Source of the DNA: Lytechinus pictus
Taxonomy: Eukaryota
DNA: 64,000 bases
Direction: 5' to 3'
Assembly (NCBI RefSeq): GCF_037042905.1
Contig: NC_087251.1
Span: 37,326,001-37,390,000, forward strand
Shown here: positions 18,401-33,400 of the stretch, one piece after another
How positions within the stretch are numbered: the first letter of the stretch is position 1
Layout of the letters: every line of letters begins with the position of its first letter
Position numbers and translations under genes: made by a program
The notes under the pieces: generated by a model
The model's input: only the letters and a program-made list of their open reading frames with translations
Database searches by the model: none
What the model was told of the DNA's origin: nothing

Positions 18401-21400
18401 GACTTGGAATATCTTACTGTGTAATGATCTAAATCATCATACGAATACCTATGATCAAATTTGTGACTATGCTATCATCCTTCTTAGAATAAAAGTGAAT
18501 TTGATATCTAGTCGTAATGACGTCATAGCAGTCGTACGATTGGCTACGATTTGACACTAATTTGGACTTTACTCCAAAATAAGGGCTTGCAATCTTTATA
18601 AAATGGTTATAATATTATTATTTCAATTAATTTTAACCTCAAATAAAATGATATGTTCCATTCAGATCTTCAAAAAATGAGCAAAATGCAATTTGTTCCA
18701 AAATCGGGTCGCAGACCAGTCGTAAGGTGTGCGGTCGCCTTAAGTGTCAGATGAGCTGATTATCATAGTCAAACCACAACTTTGGACAAGAGTTCAAATT
18801 AAACTGAGTTCAGAATACCTAGCATAGAGTATACATAATGATGACGTCACAATTTTATTTGTCTGCATTTCATCCTTTTTTTCGTCATATCTCGAAGGAG
18901 CATAATGAAAACCTCCAAAGACCAAACTTGGTAGGAATCAGTTCTAGCAGGGCCCCTGCTATGACCACATGGATATCTAATTAGCTTTACTGAAGTCAAT
19001 GTAAAATTGGCCTGGTTTTTATTGTGCAGTATTGAGTAGAGTGCCTCCAACACTCATGATACAAACACACAACTAGGAAATTGAATACAAACATTAGCCA
19101 GACTTAAATCTTTGTGAAACATCCTCATAGGATATTACACCAACTTGAAGGTTGAACCTTACAGCGGTGCTATGAAATTAGTGAACCCCACCAGAAAGTG
19201 CACTCCTTTATGCTGAGTGTTGAATGTAGACAGCAACCCTACAATGTCCAGCAGCCCATAGAAACAAACTATATTGAATGTAATATTATATCACCTGACT
19301 TCACAATTAAATATCTAAAAGATGGCAGAATTTGAACACTTTTAAGTATGTTCATTTTCTGGTAGGGAACACTAACTTTTTTCCACCACTGTTATATGGT
19401 AGGTAGATATGCAAGACAAATAGCTACATATTATTATTTGAAAGTCATACACGTTGACAGTTGAATACACATTACCTATTGAGAGTAATCAGCATGGAGT
19501 CCTGAGCATCAGGAATGCTGTCCCAGGAACACGATGAGGATGCCCATGACAGATCTACAATATGGCTCTCGAGTCTACAAAAGGAAAACAAAATGATAAT
19601 CATAGCAGACATAGTTTCATCATTCATTTAACAAGTAAAATTTGCCAAGATGGCTCTCAAGTCTACAAAAGGAAAACAAAATGATAACCAGCAAAGACAG
19701 AGCTTCATTATTCATTTAACAAAATGGAGATCCCCAAGACAGATCTAAAATATGGCTCTCTAGTCTACAAAAGGAAAACAAAATGATAATCATAGCAGAC
19801 ATAGTTTCATCATTCATTTAACAAGAAAAATTCGCCAAGATGGCTCTCAAGTCTACAAAAGGAAAACAAAATGATAACCAGCAAAGACAGAGCTTCATTA
19901 TTCATTTAACAAAATGGAGATTCCCAAGACAGATCTAAAATATGGCTCTCGAGTCTACAAAAGGAAAACAAAATGATAATCATAGCAGACATAGTTTAAT
20001 CATTCATTTAACAAGAAAAATTTGCCAAGATGGCTCTCAAGTCTACAAAAGGAAAACAAAATTATAATCAGCAAAGACAGAGCTTCATTATTCATTTAAC
20101 AAAATGGAGATCCCCAAGACAGATCTAAAATATGGCTCTCGAGTCTATAAAAGGAAAACAAAATGATAATCATAGCAGACAGAGTTTCATCATTCATTTA
20201 ACAAGTAAAATTTGCCAAGATGGCTCTCAAGTCTACAAAAGGAAAACAAAATGATAATCAGCAAAGACAGAGCTTCATTATTCATTTAACAAAATGGAGA
20301 TCCCCAAGACAGATCTAAAATATGGCTCTCGAGTCTATAAAAGGAAAACAAAATGATAATCATAGCAGACATAGTTTCATCATTCATTTAACAAGAAAAA
20401 TTTGCCAAGATGGCTCTCAAGTCTACAAAAGGAAAACAAAATTATAATCAGCAAAGACAGAGCTTCATTATTCATTTAACAAAATGGAGATCCCCAAGAC
20501 AGATCTAAAATATGGCTCTCGAGTCTATAAAAGGAAAACAAAATGATAATCATAGCAGACATAGTTTAATCATTCATTTAACAAGTAAAATTTGCCAAGA
20601 TGGCTCTCAAGTCTACAAAAGGAAAACAAAATGATAATCAGCAAAGACAGAGCTTCATTATTCATTTAACAAAATGGAGATCCCCAAGACAGATCTAAAA
20701 TATGGCTCTCGAGTCTACAAAAGGAAAACAAAATGATAATCATAGCAGACATAGTTTAATCATTCATTTAACAAGTAAAATTTGCCAAGATGGCTCTCAA
20801 GTCTACAAAAGGAAAACAAAATGATAATCAGCAAAGACATAGTTTAATCATTCATTTAACAAGTAAAATTTGCCAAGATGGCTCTCAAGTCTACAAAAGG
20901 AAAACAAAATGATAATCAGCAAAGACAGAGCTTCATTATTCATTTAACAAAATGGAGATCCCAAGACAGATCTAAAATATGGCTCTCGAGTCTATAAAAG
21001 GAAAACAAAATGATAATCATAGCAGACATAGTTTCATCATTCATTTAACAAGTAAAATTTGCCAAGATGGCTCTCGAGTCTACAAAAGGAAAACAAAATG
21101 ATAATCATAGCAGACATAGTTTAATCATTCATTTAACAAGTAAAATTTGCCAAGATGGCTCTCAAGTCTACAAAAGGAAAACAAGGCAAAAGCAATTTTG
21201 TGTCTCGCCCACTTATGAAAATAACCAGAAATATTGTGATTTGCGAGGGCACGCAACAGAATTATATCAAAACTTCATTGTGGAATGACTTGGATGGAAT
21301 TACACTTGTCATAAGAGCCTTGCACGTAAACTTTAATGTTGACCTGAAAATGACCTTTGACCTTACCATGTGACCTCCGACTGCAGCATAACATGGAGGT

Positions 21401-24400
21401 CACCTATTAAAGTACATCTACCATCCAAGTTTTGTTAAAAAGTGACTTACGGTTGCGGAGTTAAGTGTCATAAGAGAGTCTTGCATGTAAACTTTAACGT
21501 TGACCTGAAAATGACCTTTGACCTTACCATGTGACCTCCAACTGTAGCATAACATGCAGGTCCCCCAAGTCCATCTACCATCCAAGTTTGGTTGAAAAGT
21601 GACTTACGGTTGCGAAGTTAGGTGTCATAAGAGAGTCTTGCATGTAAACTTTAACGTTGACCTGAAAATGACCTTTGACCTTATTATGTGACCTCCAACT
21701 TCAGCATAACATGCAGGTCCCCCAAGTCCATCTACCATCCAAGTTTGGTTGAAAAGCGACTTACGGTTGCGGAGTTAGGTGTCAGAAGAGAGTCTTGCAT
21801 GTAAACTTTAACGTTGACCTGCATGTAAACTTTAACGTTGACCTGAAAATGACCTTTGACCTTACCATGTGACCTTCGACTGCAGCAAAGCATGCAGGTC
21901 CCCCAAGTCCATCTACAATCAAGTTTGGTTGAAAAGCGACTTACAGTTGTGGAGTTATGTGTCATTAGGTTTGTGACGGACAGACGACGGACGACATTTG
22001 GATCCCTAAGTCTCGCCTTCACCTCTGGTGGGCGAGACAACAAAATGATAATCAGCAAAGACAGAGCTTCATTATTCATTTAACAAGATGGAGATCCCCA
22101 AGACAGATCTACAAGATGGCTCTCAAGTCTACAAAAGGAAAACAAAATGATGATCACAGACTTTCATTGTTGATACATAACAATAATAATAATAGTTGGT
22201 ATTTCTATAGTGCCTTTGCCATGAGATACAGTTGGGCTTTGAGATGCCATCCCTGGTCAGCTTAATAGATAAAATAGATACAACTTACAAGGCAATGACA
22301 GTCAATGTATATGTGATTACGATATTAGAATAGGTAGATCTTCCAAATTAAATCGAAGTGATCCAAGCCTGGGTGCAGTAGAGAAGAAAGCTGCATCCCA
22401 GCAAATTTGAAGGTGTATGGTAGAGTAAAGGTCAATGACAATGGAAGACAATTAATGCCATTTTAAACATACATCCCAGAAAAAACAAAAAAGAAATTAT
22501 CAATGCTTTATCTTAACTTAATCACAAATGTTAAGACCGTGTCAGCATATACCACGTTGTCACAATAACCACAAAGGAGGCGTATTCTAAAATTAGCTTC
22601 CTTTTAATACTTGGAAGTATCTCAGTAGCGGTGCTAGCTTGTAGCATATATTCAACAACTGTGTGTGAATCCTTCAGTTTTGTATTAAAAAACGAAGAAA
22701 ACTCGGGATCGACCAAGGTCGATGTACCTTCGAACGGTCTTGTTTTAGCTGTGACCTTGCTTTGACCTTGAAGGGTAATTAGTCTAAACTCAAGTACATG
22801 CAAAAAAACCAAACATTTCAAAAGGCAACAATATCTGAATATCAAAACTATGTCATTCTATGACATCCCAACCCCCTAAGCGTGACGGAATGTCACAAAT
22901 ACAACAATCAATTCTTGCGTTAAAACTTTGATAAAAAAGGTTCATTAAAATATAATTGTCCAATGTCCATCTTTTCATCTTTGGCATTTTGAATCATTAG
23001 GAGCAATTTGTCCAATGTCTTCATAATTGTCCTGTAATTAATATCATCGTTCTCAAAGTCTAAATGTCTGAACGTTCCTCTCGCTTCATCAGAGATACAA
23101 GTTTAGTGATGGGTCTGTTTGCACATGTGCCGTCTGCAAACTTCACTTCAACAATTCTTACCAGTCCATCTTGTCCAGGTTTGGTGTCTACTACTTCGGC
23201 CATCTTCCAAGACCCACGTCTTTTGTCATCACCGATGACAAGGACAATATCGTTCTTCTCTAAGTTCTCTGCAGAATGTTGCCACTTCTGACGTGGCGTC
23301 AACTTGTGGATGTAGCCAAGCCATCTATGCCAAAACCCGTCCACCATTTTATTGCAAAGTTCTCTACGTTTGCGTGGATCTCCTTTGTAGTCTTCACAAG
23401 GGATGTCTGGACAGGTCAATTCCCCTCTACCAATAAGAAAATGATTGGGGGTAATTGGAGGATGGTCCATGGGTGAGGAAGACATCGCAGTCAGGGGGCG
23501 GCTATTGATGAGACCTGAGATCCTGCAGAAGATGGTCTCCCATTCCACAAAGGTTAGACGATCCGCCTTCACAAGATGCCGCATAGCTTTCTTTACTTCC
23601 TGGACCATGCGCTCAACCGCTCCTTGGTGGTGAGGTCCTCCTGGTGGTCCGAACTTCCACTCGATTTTGAAACGTTGACAGTGCTCACGGACCTGTGTTT
23701 GGTTGAGTTTAAGATTCAGTTCATTGATTGTATTGTCAGCCCCTCGGAAACAAGTGGCATTGTCACTAACCATCATGGCAGGTGCTCCTCTAACACTGAC
23801 AAACCTTTCCAAGGCTTGAAGGAAAGCCTGAGTTGAGAGGTCCTGGACAACAGTCAAGTGGACAGCCCTGGTAACTGCACATGTGAATAAAGCACAGTAT
23901 CCTTTGGTCGTGGTATTACGATTCAGTTTCACCATTACTGGGCCTAGATAGTCTACCAAGGTGGTCTTGAAGGGTGGAGAACAAGGGCTGATCCGGAACT
24001 CTGGTAAATCGGCCATTCTCTGGTGTGCCGGTCTTCCTCTATATTGTCTGCAAGGGATGCAACAACGAACAACACGTCGTGCGATGTTCATGTCGCCTAC
24101 TATCCAATACCTCTTCCTGACCTCATTCGCAGTCCGCAAATGACCACCATGAAGGGCATGTAGATGTCTATCACGTACAAGGAGGAAGCTAATGTGGCTA
24201 TTCTTTGGCAGAAGATAAGGATGGCGAACATCATACGACAAAGGGGCCCTACCAAGACGTCCGCCAACACGATACACCTGTTGGTCCTCATCAAAGAATG
24301 GACTGAGTTTCTGTATATTGGGATCTTGGAAATCTATCCCTTTCTGTGCTTGCCTGACCCAATATAGCTCTGCTTCCTTGATCATTCTTTGGGATGGCCA

Positions 24401-27400
24401 TTCAGAGATCTGCCGGATGAGTTGCTTCAGCCATTGATTCCGTGGAAGCTCCTTGAGGGATAACACCCTGGCCGTGACCATCTGGAGTCTAGACCAACTA
24501 GAGAATTTGGTTGCATCAACAATCGGAGAATTCTTGGACACAGCATTCACAGATAATGCGAAAGTCTTGCTGTTTCGGGAGTGAAATTTCTTCCGTTCAG
24601 GATCTCCTGGTTTGACGGGAATGTTTTCAGGTGTCTTCGGCCATGATTGAGGAGGTAATCTCAAGAATCCTGGTCCATCAATGACCTCCTGCATGTCTGT
24701 GACATCGCCTCCTCTAGAAATGAGATCAGCTGCATTTTCATCTGTGGGAACGTAGGCGATATCACTGTAGGGGTCAAATTCAGAAGTGATCTCACCAACT
24801 CGATGGGCAACATATGAGCGGAAGGTTTTCGATTGCCCTCTTAGCCAACTTATCACCGTCATGCTGTCTGTCCATATCTTCCATCCTTCTATGTTGAGGC
24901 GTAGAGCACTTCGGATGGTGTACATCAATCTGGATAGAAGGAGAAGAGCTTGTAACTCCTTCCGAGGCATACTTGTTTGCTTTAGTGGCGTCACCCTAGA
25001 CCTGGCACAGACAAAGGATAAATGAGCTTGTTGACTGTCAGTATGGGACCATCTCAGCCAAACTGCGAAACCCATAGCGTCCTCCGATGCATCGCTAAAA
25101 CCATGCATATATGCTGTAGGTAGAGGTCTCTTTCCCCTGTAAGGCTCCGGTATCAGACATCTTGGAATCTCAATGCCATCCATTTTGTCAAGGTCTCTGT
25201 TAATCTTACTCATCATGGCATACAATTCACTGCTTTTGTCAATAGGGGAGTCCCAGTCAAGGTCTATTTGCCATAACATTTGAAGAAGAATCTTGGGGCG
25301 TACCAACAGACCAGAAAGCATTCCAAAAACATCGTAATAGGATGCCGTTTGAGCAAGAATCTTCCGTTTGGTCAGGGTAGTATCGTCAGAGGGTTTGACC
25401 TTCTTCACGCTCAGTGTATCCTTAGATAGATCCCAACTGGTTCCAAGAACTGTAGCAGTTTCAGTGTTTTCTGTCTCGTCACATACCTTTTTCACATTAG
25501 ATTGCCACTTCCTTATGTTGAAGTTTCCCTTCTTCAGCGTGTCCGTCAATTTAGACTTCAGCTCCAGAGCTTCCTCAGTGGTCCTGACTGACTCGTTCAG
25601 GTCGTCCATATAGAATTGCTCCGTGATTACTGTCTGTAGTTTGTCATCATCCGGTGCATGTTCGCTAGCCACATGTCTGAGAGTGACTATTGCTGCAGTA
25701 GGGGAGGGCTTGTCCCCAAATGTAACGGTCCTCAGTTCATAGACTTGCATTGGGTAATTTGGATTTTCTCTAAACACAAATCTGTGGAATCTAGCATCAT
25801 CTGGGGGAATCTTGATCGCCTGGAACATCTTCGAAATGTCAGCGATCACGCCCACTTCATTTTCACGAAACCGGAGGGCTACCTCAAACAAATTTGAGTT
25901 GACGTTCTCTCCTTTGATAAGATAATCATTCAGGGAATGTCCTTGAAATTTCGCCTTACCGTCATATACGACTCGGACTGGAGTAGTTTTTGAGTCTTTG
26001 ACAACTGCGAAGTGTGGAAGGAACCACATCTTGTTCCCTGTTTCCCTGTCTTGTTGCAACTCATCCTGCGTCACCAGCCGAGAGACACCCCTTTCCAGTT
26101 GATCCTTCATTTGCCGACAGTAGACCTCCCATTCCTTTGGGCGATTTCTGAACTGGTTCTCAAGGCTCTTCTGTCTCTTTACAGCGTACTCATAGTTATC
26201 TGGTAACCCTTCTGGAGATCGCTTCCAGGGTAAGCGGATCTCATAAGAACCATCTGGTAGTTGATTGACACTCTTCATCATGGATTCAGTAGCTCCTTTC
26301 TCATCATCAGAAATGCACTTGCATTTCCTGGGTTCCAAGCCAGCCGTCTCGAGTCCAATGAACTCCTCTAGGGATCCTGAAGCGACCACGTTAACGTAGT
26401 TAAGAAGTGGTGCTGTGTTAGAGGGACCTCCTTGAATAAACCAACCTAGGGGACATCTTACCGCAACTGGTTCATCGGGTCTGCCTCCTCTGATATATTC
26501 CTCCCAGACCATAAGGTGAGTATTGTCCACTCCAAGTAATAGATCAATTACTGGTGATGAGGCTTCATCAATATTTACACCTGTCAGGTGGTCATAGGAT
26601 TTCAGCTGCTCAGGAGTAATGACAGGTATATCTCCACAGGGTTTCTCGATCTCAATGGCTCTCAAGGGATATGAACAATTTCCTTGGCTATCCTCGATTT
26701 CACATTCCAGGATCCTCAGCTTGCGTTTGATGATGCTTCCACCTACAAGGCTCAGGTCATGGTCCTGGTAACAGTCGCCATCAATTCTGGAAAAGATTCC
26801 TGTTCTTACGAGGGTGGCCTGACTACCCCCATCTATCAGGATGCGTACAGGGTGTCGTTTGTTACCACATCGCAGAAAACCCATCACAGTTGGTAAGGTA
26901 GCCTGCAGTTTCCCTACTTCTGTGCTTGTAGAAGATTGAACTGAGCTGTTGGAATGCATGGGTCTCACAATGTCTTCTTGATTAGCACTGACTCTTCGAC
27001 TCTGATCTCTGGCATCATCATGGGCTTTGGTACAAATGGCGGGAAAGTGCTCATCACTACCACACATCTGGACTCGACATGGTGACCTGAACTGGCACTT
27101 ACTGTGGTCATAAGGTGGCTTGCCTGAGATACAGTTATTATGGCCACACCTGAAGCAGATGTTGTTAGACTTCATCACATCAAATTTCTCCTTTAGCGCA
27201 AGAGACCTGAATTTATTGCATGTTTTCAGATAATGAGATGAGGTCTTTGGGTGCAGAGGGCACTTTGGGATGTGTGCAGTTGATGTATCCTCCCTCGACA
27301 TGGCTGCGTTGAAGGACTTTGAAACTCTCTTTGTAGGTTCCAAGCTTTCAGATGTAGTAGATTTTGATTTCTCAATTAGGATGTGCTGTTGATATAGCCA

Positions 27401-30400
27401 TTTGCTGAGTCCTGAGAGGGAATCATCAGTATTGTCATCGCGAACACTTTTGTAATACAGAATCCTATGTTCCTCTGGGAGCTTCAACTTGATTTGGCTC
27501 AGCATAATCCTGCTATTCATCTCACCTGCTAAACCAATCGTCTCTGCTTGGCATTCAAAATTCTGAAGAACCTGGATGAAGTTTGCCATTGCAGGAAGAT
27601 TAACCTTTCCTTTACTCTCATATGGCTTGAGACTATCCAAATCCTGTAGCAGTCTGTCAACTACTCGGTCTTTGTCATCAAAGCGTTGGTCTAGCATCTC
27701 CCATGCTCTTGCTACACTCGAACAGCTTTTGACCAAGTTTCTTTCCTTCTGAGACATCATTGATTCTGACAACTGGAAGAAACATTCAATCTCCGACAGT
27801 TCCTTCGTACAATGTTGGAACATTTCCTTGAATCTCTGATATTCCCTGATATCTCCATTGAATGTTGGGAATTTAAGTCTCGCCATCCTGGGAGCACAGG
27901 CACCTGCAGATTGATTCCGAGAGGTAGGAGCAGGAGAGCTTGGAGGAGTAGTTGACTGTTGATTGGATGCTTGGTTGATTGATGATGGCGACAGCTGTTT
28001 GCTGAGGATTTTCCTACCATCATTAATCTTCTGGACAAAGTCTGCCTCACAGTTGACCATCCAGGTTTCCTCTGCTTCAAATTCAACGTCGTTCTCTATT
28101 ACCTGTACAAGCTCTGCGTGCGTCTCTTCTACCCTTGCGAATTGTTCCTCGGCCTTGTCGATGTACTGCTTGAGGAGACTAGTATCTGCAGAGTCATTGG
28201 AGAGGTTGACAATAGCTGTTAATGTCCTCGTCAATTGTCCCTTCAGATTGCGCCTCGAAACCTTTAGAGCCTTTGTGTCAGCCATCTTGCGTTGATAATA
28301 TACAGCAAAGTTGTTGAAGAACTGTTAAGACCGTGTCAGCATATACCACGTTGTCACAATAACCACAAAGGAGGCGTATTCTAAAATTAGCTTCCTTTTA
28401 ATACTTGGAAGTATCTCAGTAGCGGTGCTAGCTTGTAGCATATATTCAACAACTGTGTGTGAATCCTTCAGTTTTGTATTAAAAAACGAAGAAAACTCGG
28501 GATCGACCAAGGTCGATGTACCTTCGAACGGTCTTGTTTTAGCTGTGACCTTGCTTTGACCTTGAAGGGTAATTAGTCTAAACTCAAGTACATGCAAAAA
28601 AACCAAACATTTCAAAAGGCAACAATATCTGAATATCAAAACTATGTCATTCTATGACAACAAATATTTACATTTTGGCATCCTTTCTTCAAATTGCTTT
28701 TACTATTTCATGATTGAATTATATTTCATGTGACTTGCACCAGATGAAAGATAAGACTGTTAGCTCTACAATAATATGCCATTTGTTAATCATATTTGTG
28801 ATTTCTCGATCACGAATTATTGATAATTCTCAGGTACCGGTAAGTACTTTTCATGAATGCAGTGCATATTTCCTCACCTGAAATGAGTTGTTAAGGATAG
28901 AACTGGTTTGGGTTCAAGCTGCTCGGACATTGAGTAGAAGAAGAGTGTATTCAGAGCCATGTCAAAACACTGCAGGTCAAAGGTTATTATATACAAGAGT
29001 CAAATATCAAGACTTTAAAAATAGGTTAGTCTACACAGATACATTAATACAATATAGGACCTTGAGATTTCATCAATTTTATTCATGTCACTTATGTTTG
29101 TACTTATAAACAAAAGGAATCAAGTAAACAAAAGCAGTTTTTACATATCCATGAATTATCAAATAGCACATATGAAGATAAGTAAGCAATTCTTGTAACC
29201 CACTACAGTCTAGCCAGCAGTCTAGATTCCCAGGCGTTAATTCCATTTTGTTTTATTTTTTAAATTTCTTTTATTTTCATTTTTTGGGGGGTCTACCTCT
29301 TTTCTGTTTAAGCTTTCAAAGTTAACAGTGAGTAGGAAAATTCACACTAATTGTCATCCTTCCTGCATAAGTATTTGTGCGAAAACTTGCCCTATTGTTA
29401 TGTAGTATGTATTTAACTTCCTCTTATCCTTTCAGTCATTCACCTTCGCTTGTTTACAAACTCCCCCAATGTCATCTAAGAATCCCCAAACCCCCAAGAC
29501 CATTTAACTCCTAAACCTTGACCATAAAGACCAACCCTCAGTGACGTCAGCTAACTTCAAGGAAGAAGTATGACTCACACTTCCAGCCCCAGTCACTTGC
29601 ACAGAGCATCACCACACCCCTTATACCAGAGAAAGTTTGATAGGCAGTTACCTGTAGACCAATCAGATCAAGTTTAGATCACTCCCACCTTAAATTGTTA
29701 CACCCCCAAAACTAATGATATAAATAAGACTTCTTGATTATTGGAGAGATAGAATACAACGATAGAATACTAGACCAACACTCATCCATAGAGACTGACT
29801 GACTTCAAGACTTAGACGTCCATCGAATATTAACTTAACTCCATAATCTCAATCTGATACTTCTAAATTATTTTATATTCATCGTCTCCTATTATATCTG
29901 AATATTCATGTACTTCGAACTGTAGCTGAATATTGATGATTAAATACTTTGTGACTTTGAACTGTATAACTTTCTCCAAAGTTTCCTCATTACCCTTCCC
30001 TTCTAAATTATAATTACCGATCCCAACACGACACTATTAGCACAAGAAAAGTAAAATGCTGAATCAAAAATCAAATTCATTTTGTCTCTGTGAAAATTAA
30101 ATGCTGGAAAGACGACAAGCACCAGCGAGATGAACCCCCGGCTCAACACAGCCAATGCAGTTACAGTAAACTATGGCCACCAATGATGCCAAGCTTCTGA
30201 CATTCAATGCATAAGGCACAAGAGATTTAATATCACTTAAGTTCGCATGCTTTCGGAATGCTCTATTGTCTTGCTAATCCCCATAACGAATGGGTTCGTA
30301 GTGCCCCCTGCATACATCCGAATGCGAGGATTACTGTTAACAAAGAAGTCAATAGAAAGCGCTGAAGTACTCTGTTCAGGATACCACTGAACGCAAGGAT

Positions 30401-33400
30401 TACTATTAACAAAGGAGTCAATAGAATGCGCTTAAGTATTCCGTTCAGAACGGAGAATGGTTCTGCTCAGCTAGAAACAGCTACAGCCAGGTCCAGGGGG
30501 ATTTTCCCCAAGTGATCAATGTGACGAAAAAAAAAGCAGTTTGCCGATGTATGGATTTGAGATTCATTGCCGATCGTTTGGCGATCATTTTAAGAAACAT
30601 CCCGAGTCAAAACTTTCTGCATTTTAATTTTGACGGACGTATTTCTCCATTTTTATTAAAAGGTGATCAATAACAGATGTCTTGCGCTCATGATAAGAAA
30701 TTTCCCGTGTATGAAGGGATGTCCAAACTTTGCGCTTTTTTATTTTGGCGGACGATATATATATTTTTTTTTCAGTTATATTGAAAGTCAATAAATTTGA
30801 CATTCGTTACAAATCGTCTAACAATAATTTAAAGGCATTTCTCGAGTCAGAAGGGATGTTCAAACTTTGCGCTTTTTGATTTTGACGAACGTATTTCATT
30901 TAATTAAAAGTTAATCGTCAGAGAACTTAACGATGTCGGCGCTATCTCTTCGACATCGGATCAGGCGCGGAGGTCGTCCGCTAGTTCATTCTTGACATTT
31001 TTCTTCCTGTGGTCATGCTTTATTTCATACCCTGACATCGTTTACATGATCGTTAAATAGGTTCTGACGTCAGAGAACTTCACGATGTTGGCGCTATCTC
31101 TACGACATCCGATCAGGTGCGGAGGTCGTCCGCTATTTTATCCTTGACATTTTTCTTCCCGTGGTAATCATTTATTTCACACCCTTACATCGTTTACATG
31201 ATCACAAAATAGGTTCGATTGGCGCTATCTCTCCGAAATCAGGCGCAGAAGTCGCTATCTCCCCCCTCTCTATATATATATCTTTCTCTTGTTCTATCTC
31301 TCCAACTATTGACTTTCCTCCCACTCTCCTATTCTCAAACTCATCCTTTTATTAAATTCCAGTTTAGAATACTTAACTCAAAGATGATCGTCAATGTTTC
31401 GAGATGGACATAATCATATCAATATAATTCACCTCCCGGGTTCACTTTTAGTAATTATTTTATCTTCCAATAACATCAAATATTTGCTTCATTTTTTATC
31501 CACTCCGCCATAAAATGAATATTGACCTAAAAGGTATTAAATTGTTATTTGATACTTCTAACGATTTTTAACCTATACCTTTAGAAATTATTTATTCTCA
31601 CACAGAGCACACCGAGGCTCAATGATTGTTTTCTATTGCGCAATCCACAACTGGGGGGGGGGTCAATAGATGGAGAGAAAAGAGCGAGAGAGATGGGGGG
31701 GGGGCTTTGAGGTTGTTTTCTACAGTATACTTCAGTTTTAAACATTTATTTCATATCGGGTAGCATCAAAGTTTAGACATCCCTTCTGACTAGAGAAATG
31801 TCGCAAAATAACCTCTAAACAATAATAATGTACGTTTAATCTTGCAGTAAACTTTGCTCTTTTAAATTCTTGACACTTAAAAACTTTAACAATACCATAC
31901 TGCTAAAGGCGATTTTCCCCCCTTTTTTTTAACAAGTGCACAAACCTTTTTACCAAGAATGCGTATAGCTTTTTCATTTATTTGAATGCAGGATAAAAGA
32001 ACACAGCGGATTAAATGCCTTGCTCACGGGCATAGGTGCCGCGGCCGGGGATTGAACCCCGGAGTGATTCTTAAGGTATGAATGACATCAAAGTGTATAT
32101 TATTGTTTGAGCGAACGTAAATCTCCTTTGACGCGGATTCGGGTCAGAATTGTTTGGGTATTAACGGAACTTCTAATCCAGTGGGTAGAGGGGGGGGGGG
32201 TCGAATATATTTGAGGATGATAAATCACAATAATGACAAGTATACAATCATGAGAATAACGAGGGAGTAGGAAATAATGATCAATCATTTATATATTGGC
32301 ATATAATTGTGACCAATGTTTCCTTGTGATTTTCATAATTATGATCGTTATTGAATGAAACCATTTCCCACAAAACCCCTAAAATTCGACATTGCTGTAT
32401 TGATAAATTCTTACTCCGACATCAGAGGCTTATATCTTTTAACGATATTAGAGCTTATTATGTAATTTGCATTATGAAATTATAATCATTATCTTCCAAC
32501 CAAATATGAGTCTTGCTTTTTCTCGATCCGACACGGCATAAAAAATGAAGGTTTAACAGTATAGGATATTCAATTCAAAGATGATTGTCACCGAGCATAA
32601 TTCTGAATAATTAAAGGAGGAAATAATCATATTGATATAATTGCGTGATTTACTATCTATCCTCCCACAATATACACATATCTCTTCTTCTTGATGCTTC
32701 TCGATATGAAATAAAGTTTTAAAACTGAAGTATAGAATATCGGCCTCAAAGCCACCCCCCCCCCCCTTCCCCAAAATCGTCAAGCTCTCTGACGTCAGAA
32801 CCTATTTTATGATCATGTAAAAGATGTCAGGGTATGAAATAAAAAATGATCACGGGAAGAAAAACATCAAGGATAAAATAAGCGGACGACCTCCGCGTCT
32901 GATCTGATGTCGGAGAGATTGCGCCGACATCGTTAAGTTGTCTGACGTCAGAACCTATTTTATGATCACGTAAACGATGTCAGGGTATGAAATAAAGGAT
33001 GACCAAGGGAAGAAAAATATCAAGGATAAACTAGCGGACGACCTCCGCACCAGTCTGATGTGGGATAGATAGCATTGACATCGTTTAGTTGTCTGACGTC
33101 AGAACCTATTTTATGATCATGTAAACGAAACGATGTCAGGGTATGAAATAAAGAATGACCACGGGAAGAAAAACATCAAGGATAAACTAGCGGACGACCT
33201 CCGCGCCTGATCTGATATCGGAGAGATAGCGCCGACATTGTTAAGTTGTCGGACGTTAAAACCTTTTTTATGATCAAGTAAACGATGTCAGGGTATGAAA
33301 TAAATGATGACCACGGGAAGAAAAATATGAAGGATAATAGTCAAGTCAATATAGGGTTTGACCCACCACTAATTGCAACACGAGATATTCCACTGAAATG

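Follow-up and report, generated by a model that had tools for sequence, protein, structure and literature searches.

Putative self-priming in a BEL/Pao retrotransposon of Lytechinus pictus and in related lineages with an intron in the long terminal repeat

The DNA analysed here is a 64,000-nucleotide (nt) stretch of the Lytechinus pictus genome (contig NC_087251.1 of assembly GCF_037042905.1, positions 37,326,001 to 37,390,000 of the forward strand; hereafter the window), on the minus strand of which lies a young, intact and recently inserted BEL/Pao (Belpaoviridae) long terminal repeat (LTR) retrotransposon. This element probably starts minus-strand DNA synthesis from its own RNA and not from a host transfer RNA (tRNA), in the manner of the yeast element Tf1; we set the probability of this reading at about 0.6. 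Ten nucleotides inside its 5' LTR are the exact complement of ten nucleotides lying just past that LTR, and at least 10 contiguous Watson-Crick complements to the element's own LTR RNA, placed 1-4 nt after the LTR, are present in eight of the eleven lineages examined. The initial annotation of the window had proposed a self-priming BEL lineage. Conservation between the family of the window element (family A) and its sister family B, together with covariation in more distant lineages, supports that proposal; some of the promoter details that accompanied it do not stand, and self-priming, rather than being peculiar to one lineage, appears to be common to a broad set of BEL/Pao families in this genome.

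Complementarity at the 5' LTR boundary

The features involved are given below, all on the minus strand, with their counterparts in the sister families B and L043 where these are relevant.

28323..28659, minus strand: 5' LTR, 337 bp, TG..CA ends, intron-less form; other copies end at the identical base
28472..28481, minus strand: TAATACAAAA, the earlier TATA-like box, at the 3' end of the upstream LTR exon
28465..28466, minus strand: exon-exon junction ..CTGAAG|GATTC.., marking the exact loss of an 805-nt intron, 11 nt upstream of the 10-mer
28445..28454, minus strand: AGTTGTTGAA, putative self-primer within the LTR; surroundings CACA|GTTG, initiator-like
28397..28402, minus strand: poly(A) signal ATTAAA, situated 53 nt downstream of 28454, with AATAAA as its counterpart in family B
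28346..28360, minus strand: conserved U5 block ATTGTGACAACGTGG (ATTGCAACAACGTG in B and L043), from the A/B alignment
28319..28322, minus strand: 4-nt spacer GTTC between the CA of the LTR end and the primer-binding site
28309..28318, minus strand: candidate primer-binding site TTCAACAACT, complementary to the element's own RNA and invariant in families A, B and L043

On the minus strand the 5' LTR terminates in ...GGTCTTAACA at 28323. GTTC (28322-28319), TTCAACAACT (28318-28309) and TTGCTG follow in turn; this post-LTR sequence, GTTCTTCAACAACTTTGCTG, contains no TGG, and with the ATG at 28285 the leader after the 5' LTR amounts to 37 nt, both as originally described. The segment AGTTGTTGAA sits within CACACAGTTG (28454-28445, minus strand), and TTCAACAACT is its exact complement over 10 bp, extending at neither end, which bears out the perfect pairing first reported for 28454-28445 and 28318-28309. 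The CAGTT context, the TAATACAAAA stretch 27 nt upstream and the ATTAAA (28402-28397) downstream were also correctly placed. The interval of 4 nt between LTR and site had been regarded as unusually long; spacers of 1-4 nt are in fact the rule throughout the clade. No tRNA-type (TGG) site adjoins the 5' LTR in the window element or in family B, and relatives with a canonical TGG primer-binding site, which the initial annotation had named as counter-evidence, were seen in none of the eleven lineages examined. AGTTGTTGAA is predicted either to open R as its first 10 nt or to form the 3' portion of a leader fragment released by cleavage. The U5 block ATTGTGACAACGTGG holds a second, shorter complement of GTTGTTG and is possibly the counterpart of the U5-IR structure of Tf1.

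When the LTR was shuffled by mononucleotides, 6 of 3000 sequences attained a 10-nt match, and with neighbour-preserving swaps, a control that is imperfectly shuffled, 15 of 1000 did so. Other 24-nt segments of the element interior, compared with the LTR in the same manner, matched over at least 10 nt in 2 cases out of 227. The match in isolation is only modestly improbable; its weight rests on the relatives of the element.

An intron within the LTR

All genome searches were made in the 812-Mb assembly. With the LTR and leader of the window copy as query, 34 matches were obtained. The contiguous 337-bp LTR is found in three elements, namely the window copy, one on contig 21 and one on contig 6, while in copies on contigs 12, 13, 15, 14 and 6 LTR bases 1-195 and 193-337 match about 800 bp apart. 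At the sister locus L032 an 805-nt stretch, starting with GTACGT and ending in a pyrimidine-rich tract and CAG, lies between ...AAAACTGAAG and GATTCACACACAGTTG..., so that L032 and the other intron-bearing sister copies read CTGAAG|GTACGT...GCTACAG|GATTC. To judge from its sequence, this insert has all the marks of a spliceosomal-type GT..AG intron, and on the same grounds the window copy is the exact intron-less form, derived from spliced RNA.

The window LTR being an exact intron deletion with its junction at 28466|28465, the TATA-like TAATACAAAA is the end of the upstream exon. The box does lie 27 nt upstream of the 10-mer, but it is exon sequence brought to that position by the splice junction; the -27 region in the intron-bearing sister copies is the polypyrimidine tract of the intron. 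The post-LTR arrangement is identical in all five full-length family-A copies read, one of which differs by two bases just past the site. Over 2604 bases, the three intron-less A copies share no private substitution when set against two intron-bearing ones, and the tree is a star. Having no private change in common, the three may be separate products of spliced RNA. That the intron-less copies form a lineage of their own, which would have argued for a promoter outside the intron, was also considered and set aside, the star tree offering no argument either way.

Sister families

Relatives were collected by a genome search with the first 308 Gag residues, which gave 60 matches. The eleven lineages examined are A, B, L043, C, C', D, E, F, G, H and I; locus L081, which has no recognisable LTR end, was excluded from all counts. 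Family B (58% Gag identity, six copies, L037-L042) carries an LTR intron of about 1 kb at the same position (CAAG|GTATGT ... TTTACAG|GAATC), has AGTTGTTGAA at the identical distance (-169) from the ATG, and has TCTTCAACAACT immediately after the LTR end. That end was checked by nine 3'-LTR or solo-LTR matches, eight of which stop at query base 140 and one at 138. In the A/B alignment from exon 2 through the leader the overall identity is 56%, and conservation runs longest over the two complementary sites and the one U5 block; the self-primer AGTTGTTGAA lies inside a 17-nt block, CACACAGTTGTTGAATA, which is identical in family B against the 56% identity of its surroundings. L043 is a single degenerate copy (56% Gag identity) containing a stop codon. 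Just past the site stands T in A, A in B and C in L043, and G, T or C among copies of family F. As neither partner varies between A and B, no covariation can be read within A, B and L043.

Distant lineages and covariation

Further lineages were found at 21-28% Gag identity, DUF1759 being present in all four families tested (B, C, D and E). The LTRs of C, C', D, E, F, G, H and I terminate in ...CCA, and 1-4 nt later the sequence ATTCAAT... begins, which C and C' replace by ATTCGAT.... For E and C the LTR termini were checked by 3'-LTR and solo-LTR matches. Within the LTRs of the distant lineages a pyrimidine tract and (C/T)AG are followed by ATTGAAT (ATCGAAT in C), and this heptamer after the acceptor, taken as its reverse complement, gives the initial 7 nt of the site. 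Far upstream in the LTR stands a donor, mostly ...GAA|GTAAGT, and the 4-7 nt preceding it correspond, in reverse complement, to the bases that come next in the site. The unspliced sequences of C to H hold only 7 pairs (5 in C'), and the numbers of pairs between LTR and site are as follows.

C: 13 contiguous pairs, spliced
C': 12 pairs, spliced, with one CpG-type mismatch; 8 contiguous; dead copy
D: 11 contiguous pairs, spliced
E: 12 contiguous pairs, spliced
F: 12 contiguous pairs, spliced (14 in copy L077)
G: 11 contiguous pairs, spliced
H: 12 contiguous pairs, spliced
A and B: 10 contiguous pairs each

Family E, in which AAGAA|ATTGAAT pairs with ATTCAAT TTCTT, served as the reference for covariation. 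Relative to it there are seven two-sided changes that keep the pairing, three in C, three in H and one in C'. In C, T>C at position 3 of exon 2 is accompanied by A>G in the site, and in exon 1 A>G at -2 by T>C and G>A at -3 by C>T. In H the changes are G>A at -3 with C>T, A>G at -4 with T>C and A>T at -5 with T>A, and in C' A>T at -5 with T>A. The primer/site pair of A and B is unrelated to that of the other lineages. The pairing is in this way kept among relatives while the sequences change, as in the Tf1 class, and since the sites track each lineage's own LTR, a constant host RNA or tRNA is ruled out for this pattern. The co-variation of site and LTR partner, for which the initial annotation had proposed a test in related BEL families, is found in C, C' and H against E and is wanting within A, B and L043, where no such change is seen. 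In a blind test on family G, the upstream GT whose preceding bases best complemented the site, among 123 candidates, was the only consensus GTAAGT donor homologous to those of the other families.

In families C, F, G and H (L044, L074-L076, L075/L082, L079) the poly(A) signal AATAAA overlaps the LTR partner (ATTG/ATCG-AATAAA). A cut after ...GAAT, as proposed below, would in these families fall within AATAAA, and R would be only about 20-30 nt long.

Structure and classification of the element

The remaining features of the window element are listed here.

28660..28664, with a second copy at 22524-22528, no strand: 5-bp target-site duplication, ACAAA on the plus strand, read from the flanks
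23060..28285, minus strand: single gag-pol open reading frame (ORF) of BEL/Pao type, 1741 amino acids, no internal stop, with Pfam matches
22866..22877, minus strand: polypurine tract AGGGGGTTGGGA, immediately upstream of the 3' LTR, read from the flank
22529..22865, minus strand: 3' LTR, 337 bp, partner of the 5' LTR

The two LTRs show 0 mismatches over 337 bp (100% identity). Among the Pfam domains of the ORF are Peptidase_A17 ("Pao retrotransposon peptidase", 3.3e-38), DUF5641, DUF1759, RVT_1 and Integrase_H2C2. Identical LTRs, target-site duplication, ORF and domains together confirm the earlier description of an intact BEL/Pao element, and an intact ORF between identical LTRs points to recent replication with the present leader. 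Membership of BEL/Pao follows from the Pao-type polyprotein domains lying between LTRs and a target duplication; the polyprotein is not that of a Ty3/gypsy chromovirus, as it would be in a member of the Tf1/sushi group. One feature of BEL/Pao elements, the tRNA site, is lacking: there is no TGG, and no tRNA match in a host tRNA set consisting of tRNA-Lys only.

Tandem arrays occur near the element at 19482-21244, 21249-21904, 30916-31216 and 32723-33359. They comprise 190-bp units repeated about nine times, as well as units of 157 bp, about 152 bp and 153 bp.

Proposed mechanism

In the mechanism we propose, the RNA segment AGUUGUUGAA (28454-28445) would fold back onto UUCAACAACU (28318-28309), 4 nt past the 5' LTR. 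Ribonuclease H (RNase H) of the element would cut after 28445 and free a 3'-OH, which the reverse transcriptase would extend through the spacer GTTC, U5 and R. At a later step plus-strand strong-stop DNA would copy the primer back, rewriting the primer-binding site in each new copy, in the way that retroviral sites are restored from the primer in every new copy when plus-strand strong-stop DNA is made. Rewriting of this kind would account for a match that is perfect even in dead copies, for its sharp ends and for the varying base just beyond it, and the sharp 5' end of the complement would mark the 5' end of the primer. Both the function of the pairing in priming and the RNase H cut are what we infer from sequence comparison.

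In C to H the primer would be composed of the last 4-7 nt of the upstream exon and the first 7 nt of the downstream exon, in other words of the start of the spliced RNA. One scenario, put forward tentatively and given rather less than even odds, is that self-priming depends on splicing: removal of the LTR intron would create the primer, and the window lineage would have moved it into the downstream exon. Under this scenario transcription would start 4-7 nt upstream of the LTR donor, so that the first exon would be very short, and removal of the 5' copy of the intron would produce an 11-14-nt capped end pairing with the primer-binding site. The 3' copy of the intron would have to stay unspliced in order to be inherited. 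In A and B both the primer and the start would have shifted into the downstream exon, with RNA beginning at 28454, and the window copy would descend from an RNA from which the 3' LTR intron had been spliced out.

Transcripts, the RNA 5' end and leader folds

That the 5' end of the primer is also the transcription start, at 28454, is in our estimation an even bet. A start further upstream in the LTR, the primer then being an internal segment of the leader, is a somewhat weaker candidate, and a start elsewhere is unlikely. Two indirect hints bear on the 5' end: in A and B the complement sets in at the A of an initiator-like CA|G, and its ends are sharp. TATA-like stretches about 30 nt upstream of the predicted starts were also considered in ten alignments; the region is AT-rich in most of them, and it was given no weight because the genome itself is AT-rich.

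Three raw-read RNA runs labelled as this species and one contig run were compared with the intron-bearing sister locus L032. One of the three raw-read runs (X11) covers L032:2353-3576, with a depth of about 6x over both LTR exons and 0 over the intron; the other two contain next to nothing on the element. X11 includes three junction reads, and the window-type (7-T) T-run is carried by seven of nine reads. Since intron-less DNA copies exist, the junction reads do not prove splicing. The X11 signal may represent an antisense transcript, perhaps starting in gag, or a read-through transcript. A short repeat beside the LTR (L032:3577-3700), unrelated to the element, is deeply covered on both strands by every RNA run, with depths of about 770-1600 for the contig run.

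Minimum-energy folds were obtained for seven leaders, and in five of them the pairing between self-primer and site closes the structure.

Intron-less and rearranged copies

Exact intron-less LTRs are found in three families: A (the window copy and two others), E (L053, in both LTRs) and F (L078). L053 is situated on contig 8 at about 33.53 Mb and L078 on contig 17 at about 31.775 Mb. This recurrence suggests that LTR-spliced RNAs are reverse-transcribed fairly often. Rearranged copies were seen in E (L051/L052, contig 8, about 26.84 Mb) and in F (L077, contig 10, about 22.606 Mb). In these the upstream exon and the 12-mer junction AAGAAATTGAAT run directly into the reverse complement of the spacer and U5; in L077 the rearrangement continues into R and 127 nt of the intron, and then returns to sense at an 8-nt microhomology. 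Such snap-back copies are consistent with the product expected of extension from the site but are not decisive, since a DNA template switch at the same complementarity could also generate them.

Weighing of the evidence and alternative explanations

A number of observations weigh against Tf1-like self-priming. Taken alone, the 10-bp match of the window element has a chance probability of about 0.002-0.015. The conserved post-LTR block of A, B and L043 measures 12-13 nt (T/TCTTCAACAACT), of which pairing with the element's own RNA covers only 10, and L043 keeps the site while its LTR (AGAGTTG) offers 7 complementary nt, or 8 with G.U; the poor LTR partner of L043 is either a point against the reading or a result of decay. 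Among the distant lineages, complements across families D, E, F and H (9-15) equal those within a family in length. Between the classes A/B, C and D-H the cross complements drop to 4-8; because D, E, F and H have a common core, the covariation rests on C, C', H and A/B. Lineage I has the 7-nt core only, with no upstream exon within 1.9 kb, and the mismatch of C' falls within the core, although as a CpG-type change in a copy with a stop codon. The 3' splice site lies 11 nt upstream of 28454 and the -30 regions of intron-bearing and intron-less copies differ, so one fixed promoter fits awkwardly. The X11 reads are in a single orientation, end about 70 nt into gag and show no pile-up at a start, at a depth of about 6x. 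Two of the seven folds lack the pairing, namely E, and B when started at the 10-mer, where the U5 block competes. Finally, the tRNA sample is very incomplete, consisting of tRNA-Lys only, which leaves room for a rare or mitochondrial RNA as primer of A and B.

The alternative that survives best, though we consider it unlikely, is that the pairing is real and serves another role, with some other primer in use. The complement could form a long-range leader stem, present in the 5' context alone, that masks the 5' poly(A) signal by looping out R-U5, act in packaging or dimerisation, or control splicing of the LTR intron. The stem does enclose the poly(A) signal in the folds of A and B, the overlap of AATAAA with the LTR partner in C, F, G and H is in keeping with such a role, and covariation proves pairing, not priming. 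However, no alternative primer site is apparent, with nothing of the TGG type at the LTR boundary of A or B, and the paired site always lies 1-4 nt after the terminal CA, where the 3' end of a primer must sit to define U5. The complement is moreover sharp-ended and perfect even in dead copies, as expected from copying in each cycle, and in the snap-back copies extension begins exactly at the site.

A further alternative, which we regard as quite improbable, is that a host RNA ending in ...AGTTGTTGAAGA(A) serves as primer for A, B and L043, be it an internal tRNA fragment as in copia, a mitochondrial RNA or another small RNA, and that the LTR 10-mer is kept for a different reason, for example as an initiator. 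It would suit this explanation that the conserved block of 12-13 nt adjoins the LTR across a spacer of 0-1 nt, as classical primer-binding sites do, and that L043 retains the site without a good LTR partner; TTGAAGA could, in our own reading, be taken as a Phe (GAA) anticodon loop. The complementary 12-mer occurs 229 times, against 199 for its reversed control, with no multi-copy excess, and the surplus of about 30 is roughly what the element copies carrying the site (not counted separately) would contribute. No tRNA is present at the 13 sites fetched, nine of them sampled and four taken from the first gapped pattern. A search for the 10-mer with a T-loop motif within 0-30 nt gave 4 matches against 15 in the control, none of them a tRNA; within 30-60 nt there were 9 against 5, none apparently inside a tRNA body as judged from the printed matches. 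The host tRNA comparison set comprised 46 genes, all tRNA-Lys, collected after an Rfam tRNA search in which 63 of about 73,000 candidates were scored; seven tRNA-Lys sequences representing both anticodons have a longest complement of 4 nt to the site, and no tRNA genes were found within the window. A host primer would also require a perfect 10-nt LTR complement at an initiator-like CA|G to be a coincidence in two families, and seven related lineages track their own LTR and not a constant host RNA. It is mainly this covariation in the relatives that weakens the explanation.

Two further observations were made in the course of these searches. A satellite-like repeat, present at L068 (contig 5, about 13.612 Mb) and in the flanks of L005/L033, has units of the form ...GGAAAGTTGTTGAA(C/G)A...ACAACGTTGG... 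which contain the 10-mer, and it therefore adds to the background count of the motif. The top Rfam tRNA matches of the genome all come from a tRNA-Lys array on contig 4 or from other Lys genes; this array (9,700,600-9,735,000; L088, L089) has TTT/CTT anticodons and holds 41 genes in the 20 kb read, about 460-490 bp apart.

A fortuitous match in a derivative copy whose true primer site has been lost is very improbable: the match is only 10 bp long and two of the internal control segments did as well, but all five family-A copies and family B have the arrangement at the same place, and the intact ORF and identical LTRs speak for recent replication with this leader.

Comparison with known systems

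In Tf1, as passages of PMC4600332 and PMC6934838 describe, a 5' segment of the RNA pairs with a site by the LTR; the duplex is cut by RNase H, and the minus strand is started from the end released in this way. Like Tf1/Tf2 (S. pombe), Tj1 (S. japonicus) and the Tf1/sushi elements in general, the window element has no tRNA-type site. As in the Tf1 group, the post-LTR site complements the element's own LTR-derived RNA, here over 10-14 nt, and relatives keep the match while their sequences differ. The self-primer of Tf1 is 11 nt long. Unlike the Tf1 group, which are Ty3/gypsy chromoviruses, the element described here is BEL/Pao by its Pfam domains and is known from sequence alone. It also differs from Tf1 in having a spliceosomal-type intron in the LTR beside the primer, the primer sequence of most lineages existing only after splicing; we know of nothing in Tf1 like an LTR intron next to the primer segment. 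The element likely self-primes, and so works like Tf1 without belonging to the Tf1 family. To our knowledge, the only experimental demonstrations of self-priming concern Tf1-type Ty3/gypsy elements; for some copia lineages it is a prediction.

Passages of PMC6317226 give self-priming as shown for Tf1 and as predicted for the Tf1/sushi group, for Tcn1 chromoviruses and for the Ty1/copia TAR lineage (Houba, Osr-1); the prediction for plant elements used a complement of at least 10 bp to the 5' LTR starting 0-5 bp after it. The window element, with 10 nt at +4, resembles the plant Tcn1 and TAR elements in this respect. Unlike it, these belong to other superfamilies and to plant hosts, and the same passages describe no LTR intron for them (PMC6317226). 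That source also covers copia-type priming by an internal tRNA half (1/2 tRNA-Met, 1/2 tRNA-Ile), which gives a primer site without TGG; unlike a site for such a constant host fragment, the site here varies with its own LTR across lineages.

The Belpaoviridae profile of ICTV, the international virus-taxonomy committee, in its relevant passages, describes replication as tRNA-primed, with a site of 18 nt that complements the 3' end of either tRNA-Arg or tRNA-Gly (PMC8742986). The window element agrees with canonical BEL/Pao elements (genus Semotivirus) in its gag-pol layout, in Peptidase_A17, DUF1759 and DUF5641, in its LTRs and 5-bp duplication and in its polypurine tract; unlike them, the clade to which it belongs has no 18-nt tRNA-Arg or tRNA-Gly site. 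In a survey of BEL/Pao elements (PMC3118150) the words PBS (primer-binding site), tRNA and intron are all absent. The open-access literature searched yielded no self-priming proposal for BEL/Pao and nothing relevant on LTR introns; the passages of PMC3601003 and PMC5443660 that touch on self-priming mention it in general terms only.

If Tf1-like priming does operate in these elements, self-priming would have arisen or persisted in all three LTR superfamilies, and the failure of tRNA-site-based annotation pipelines on elements of this kind would be explained. A primer sequence confined to spliced RNA would tie competence for replication to splicing, and the intron-less LTR copies would constitute a readable record of which RNAs get reverse-transcribed.

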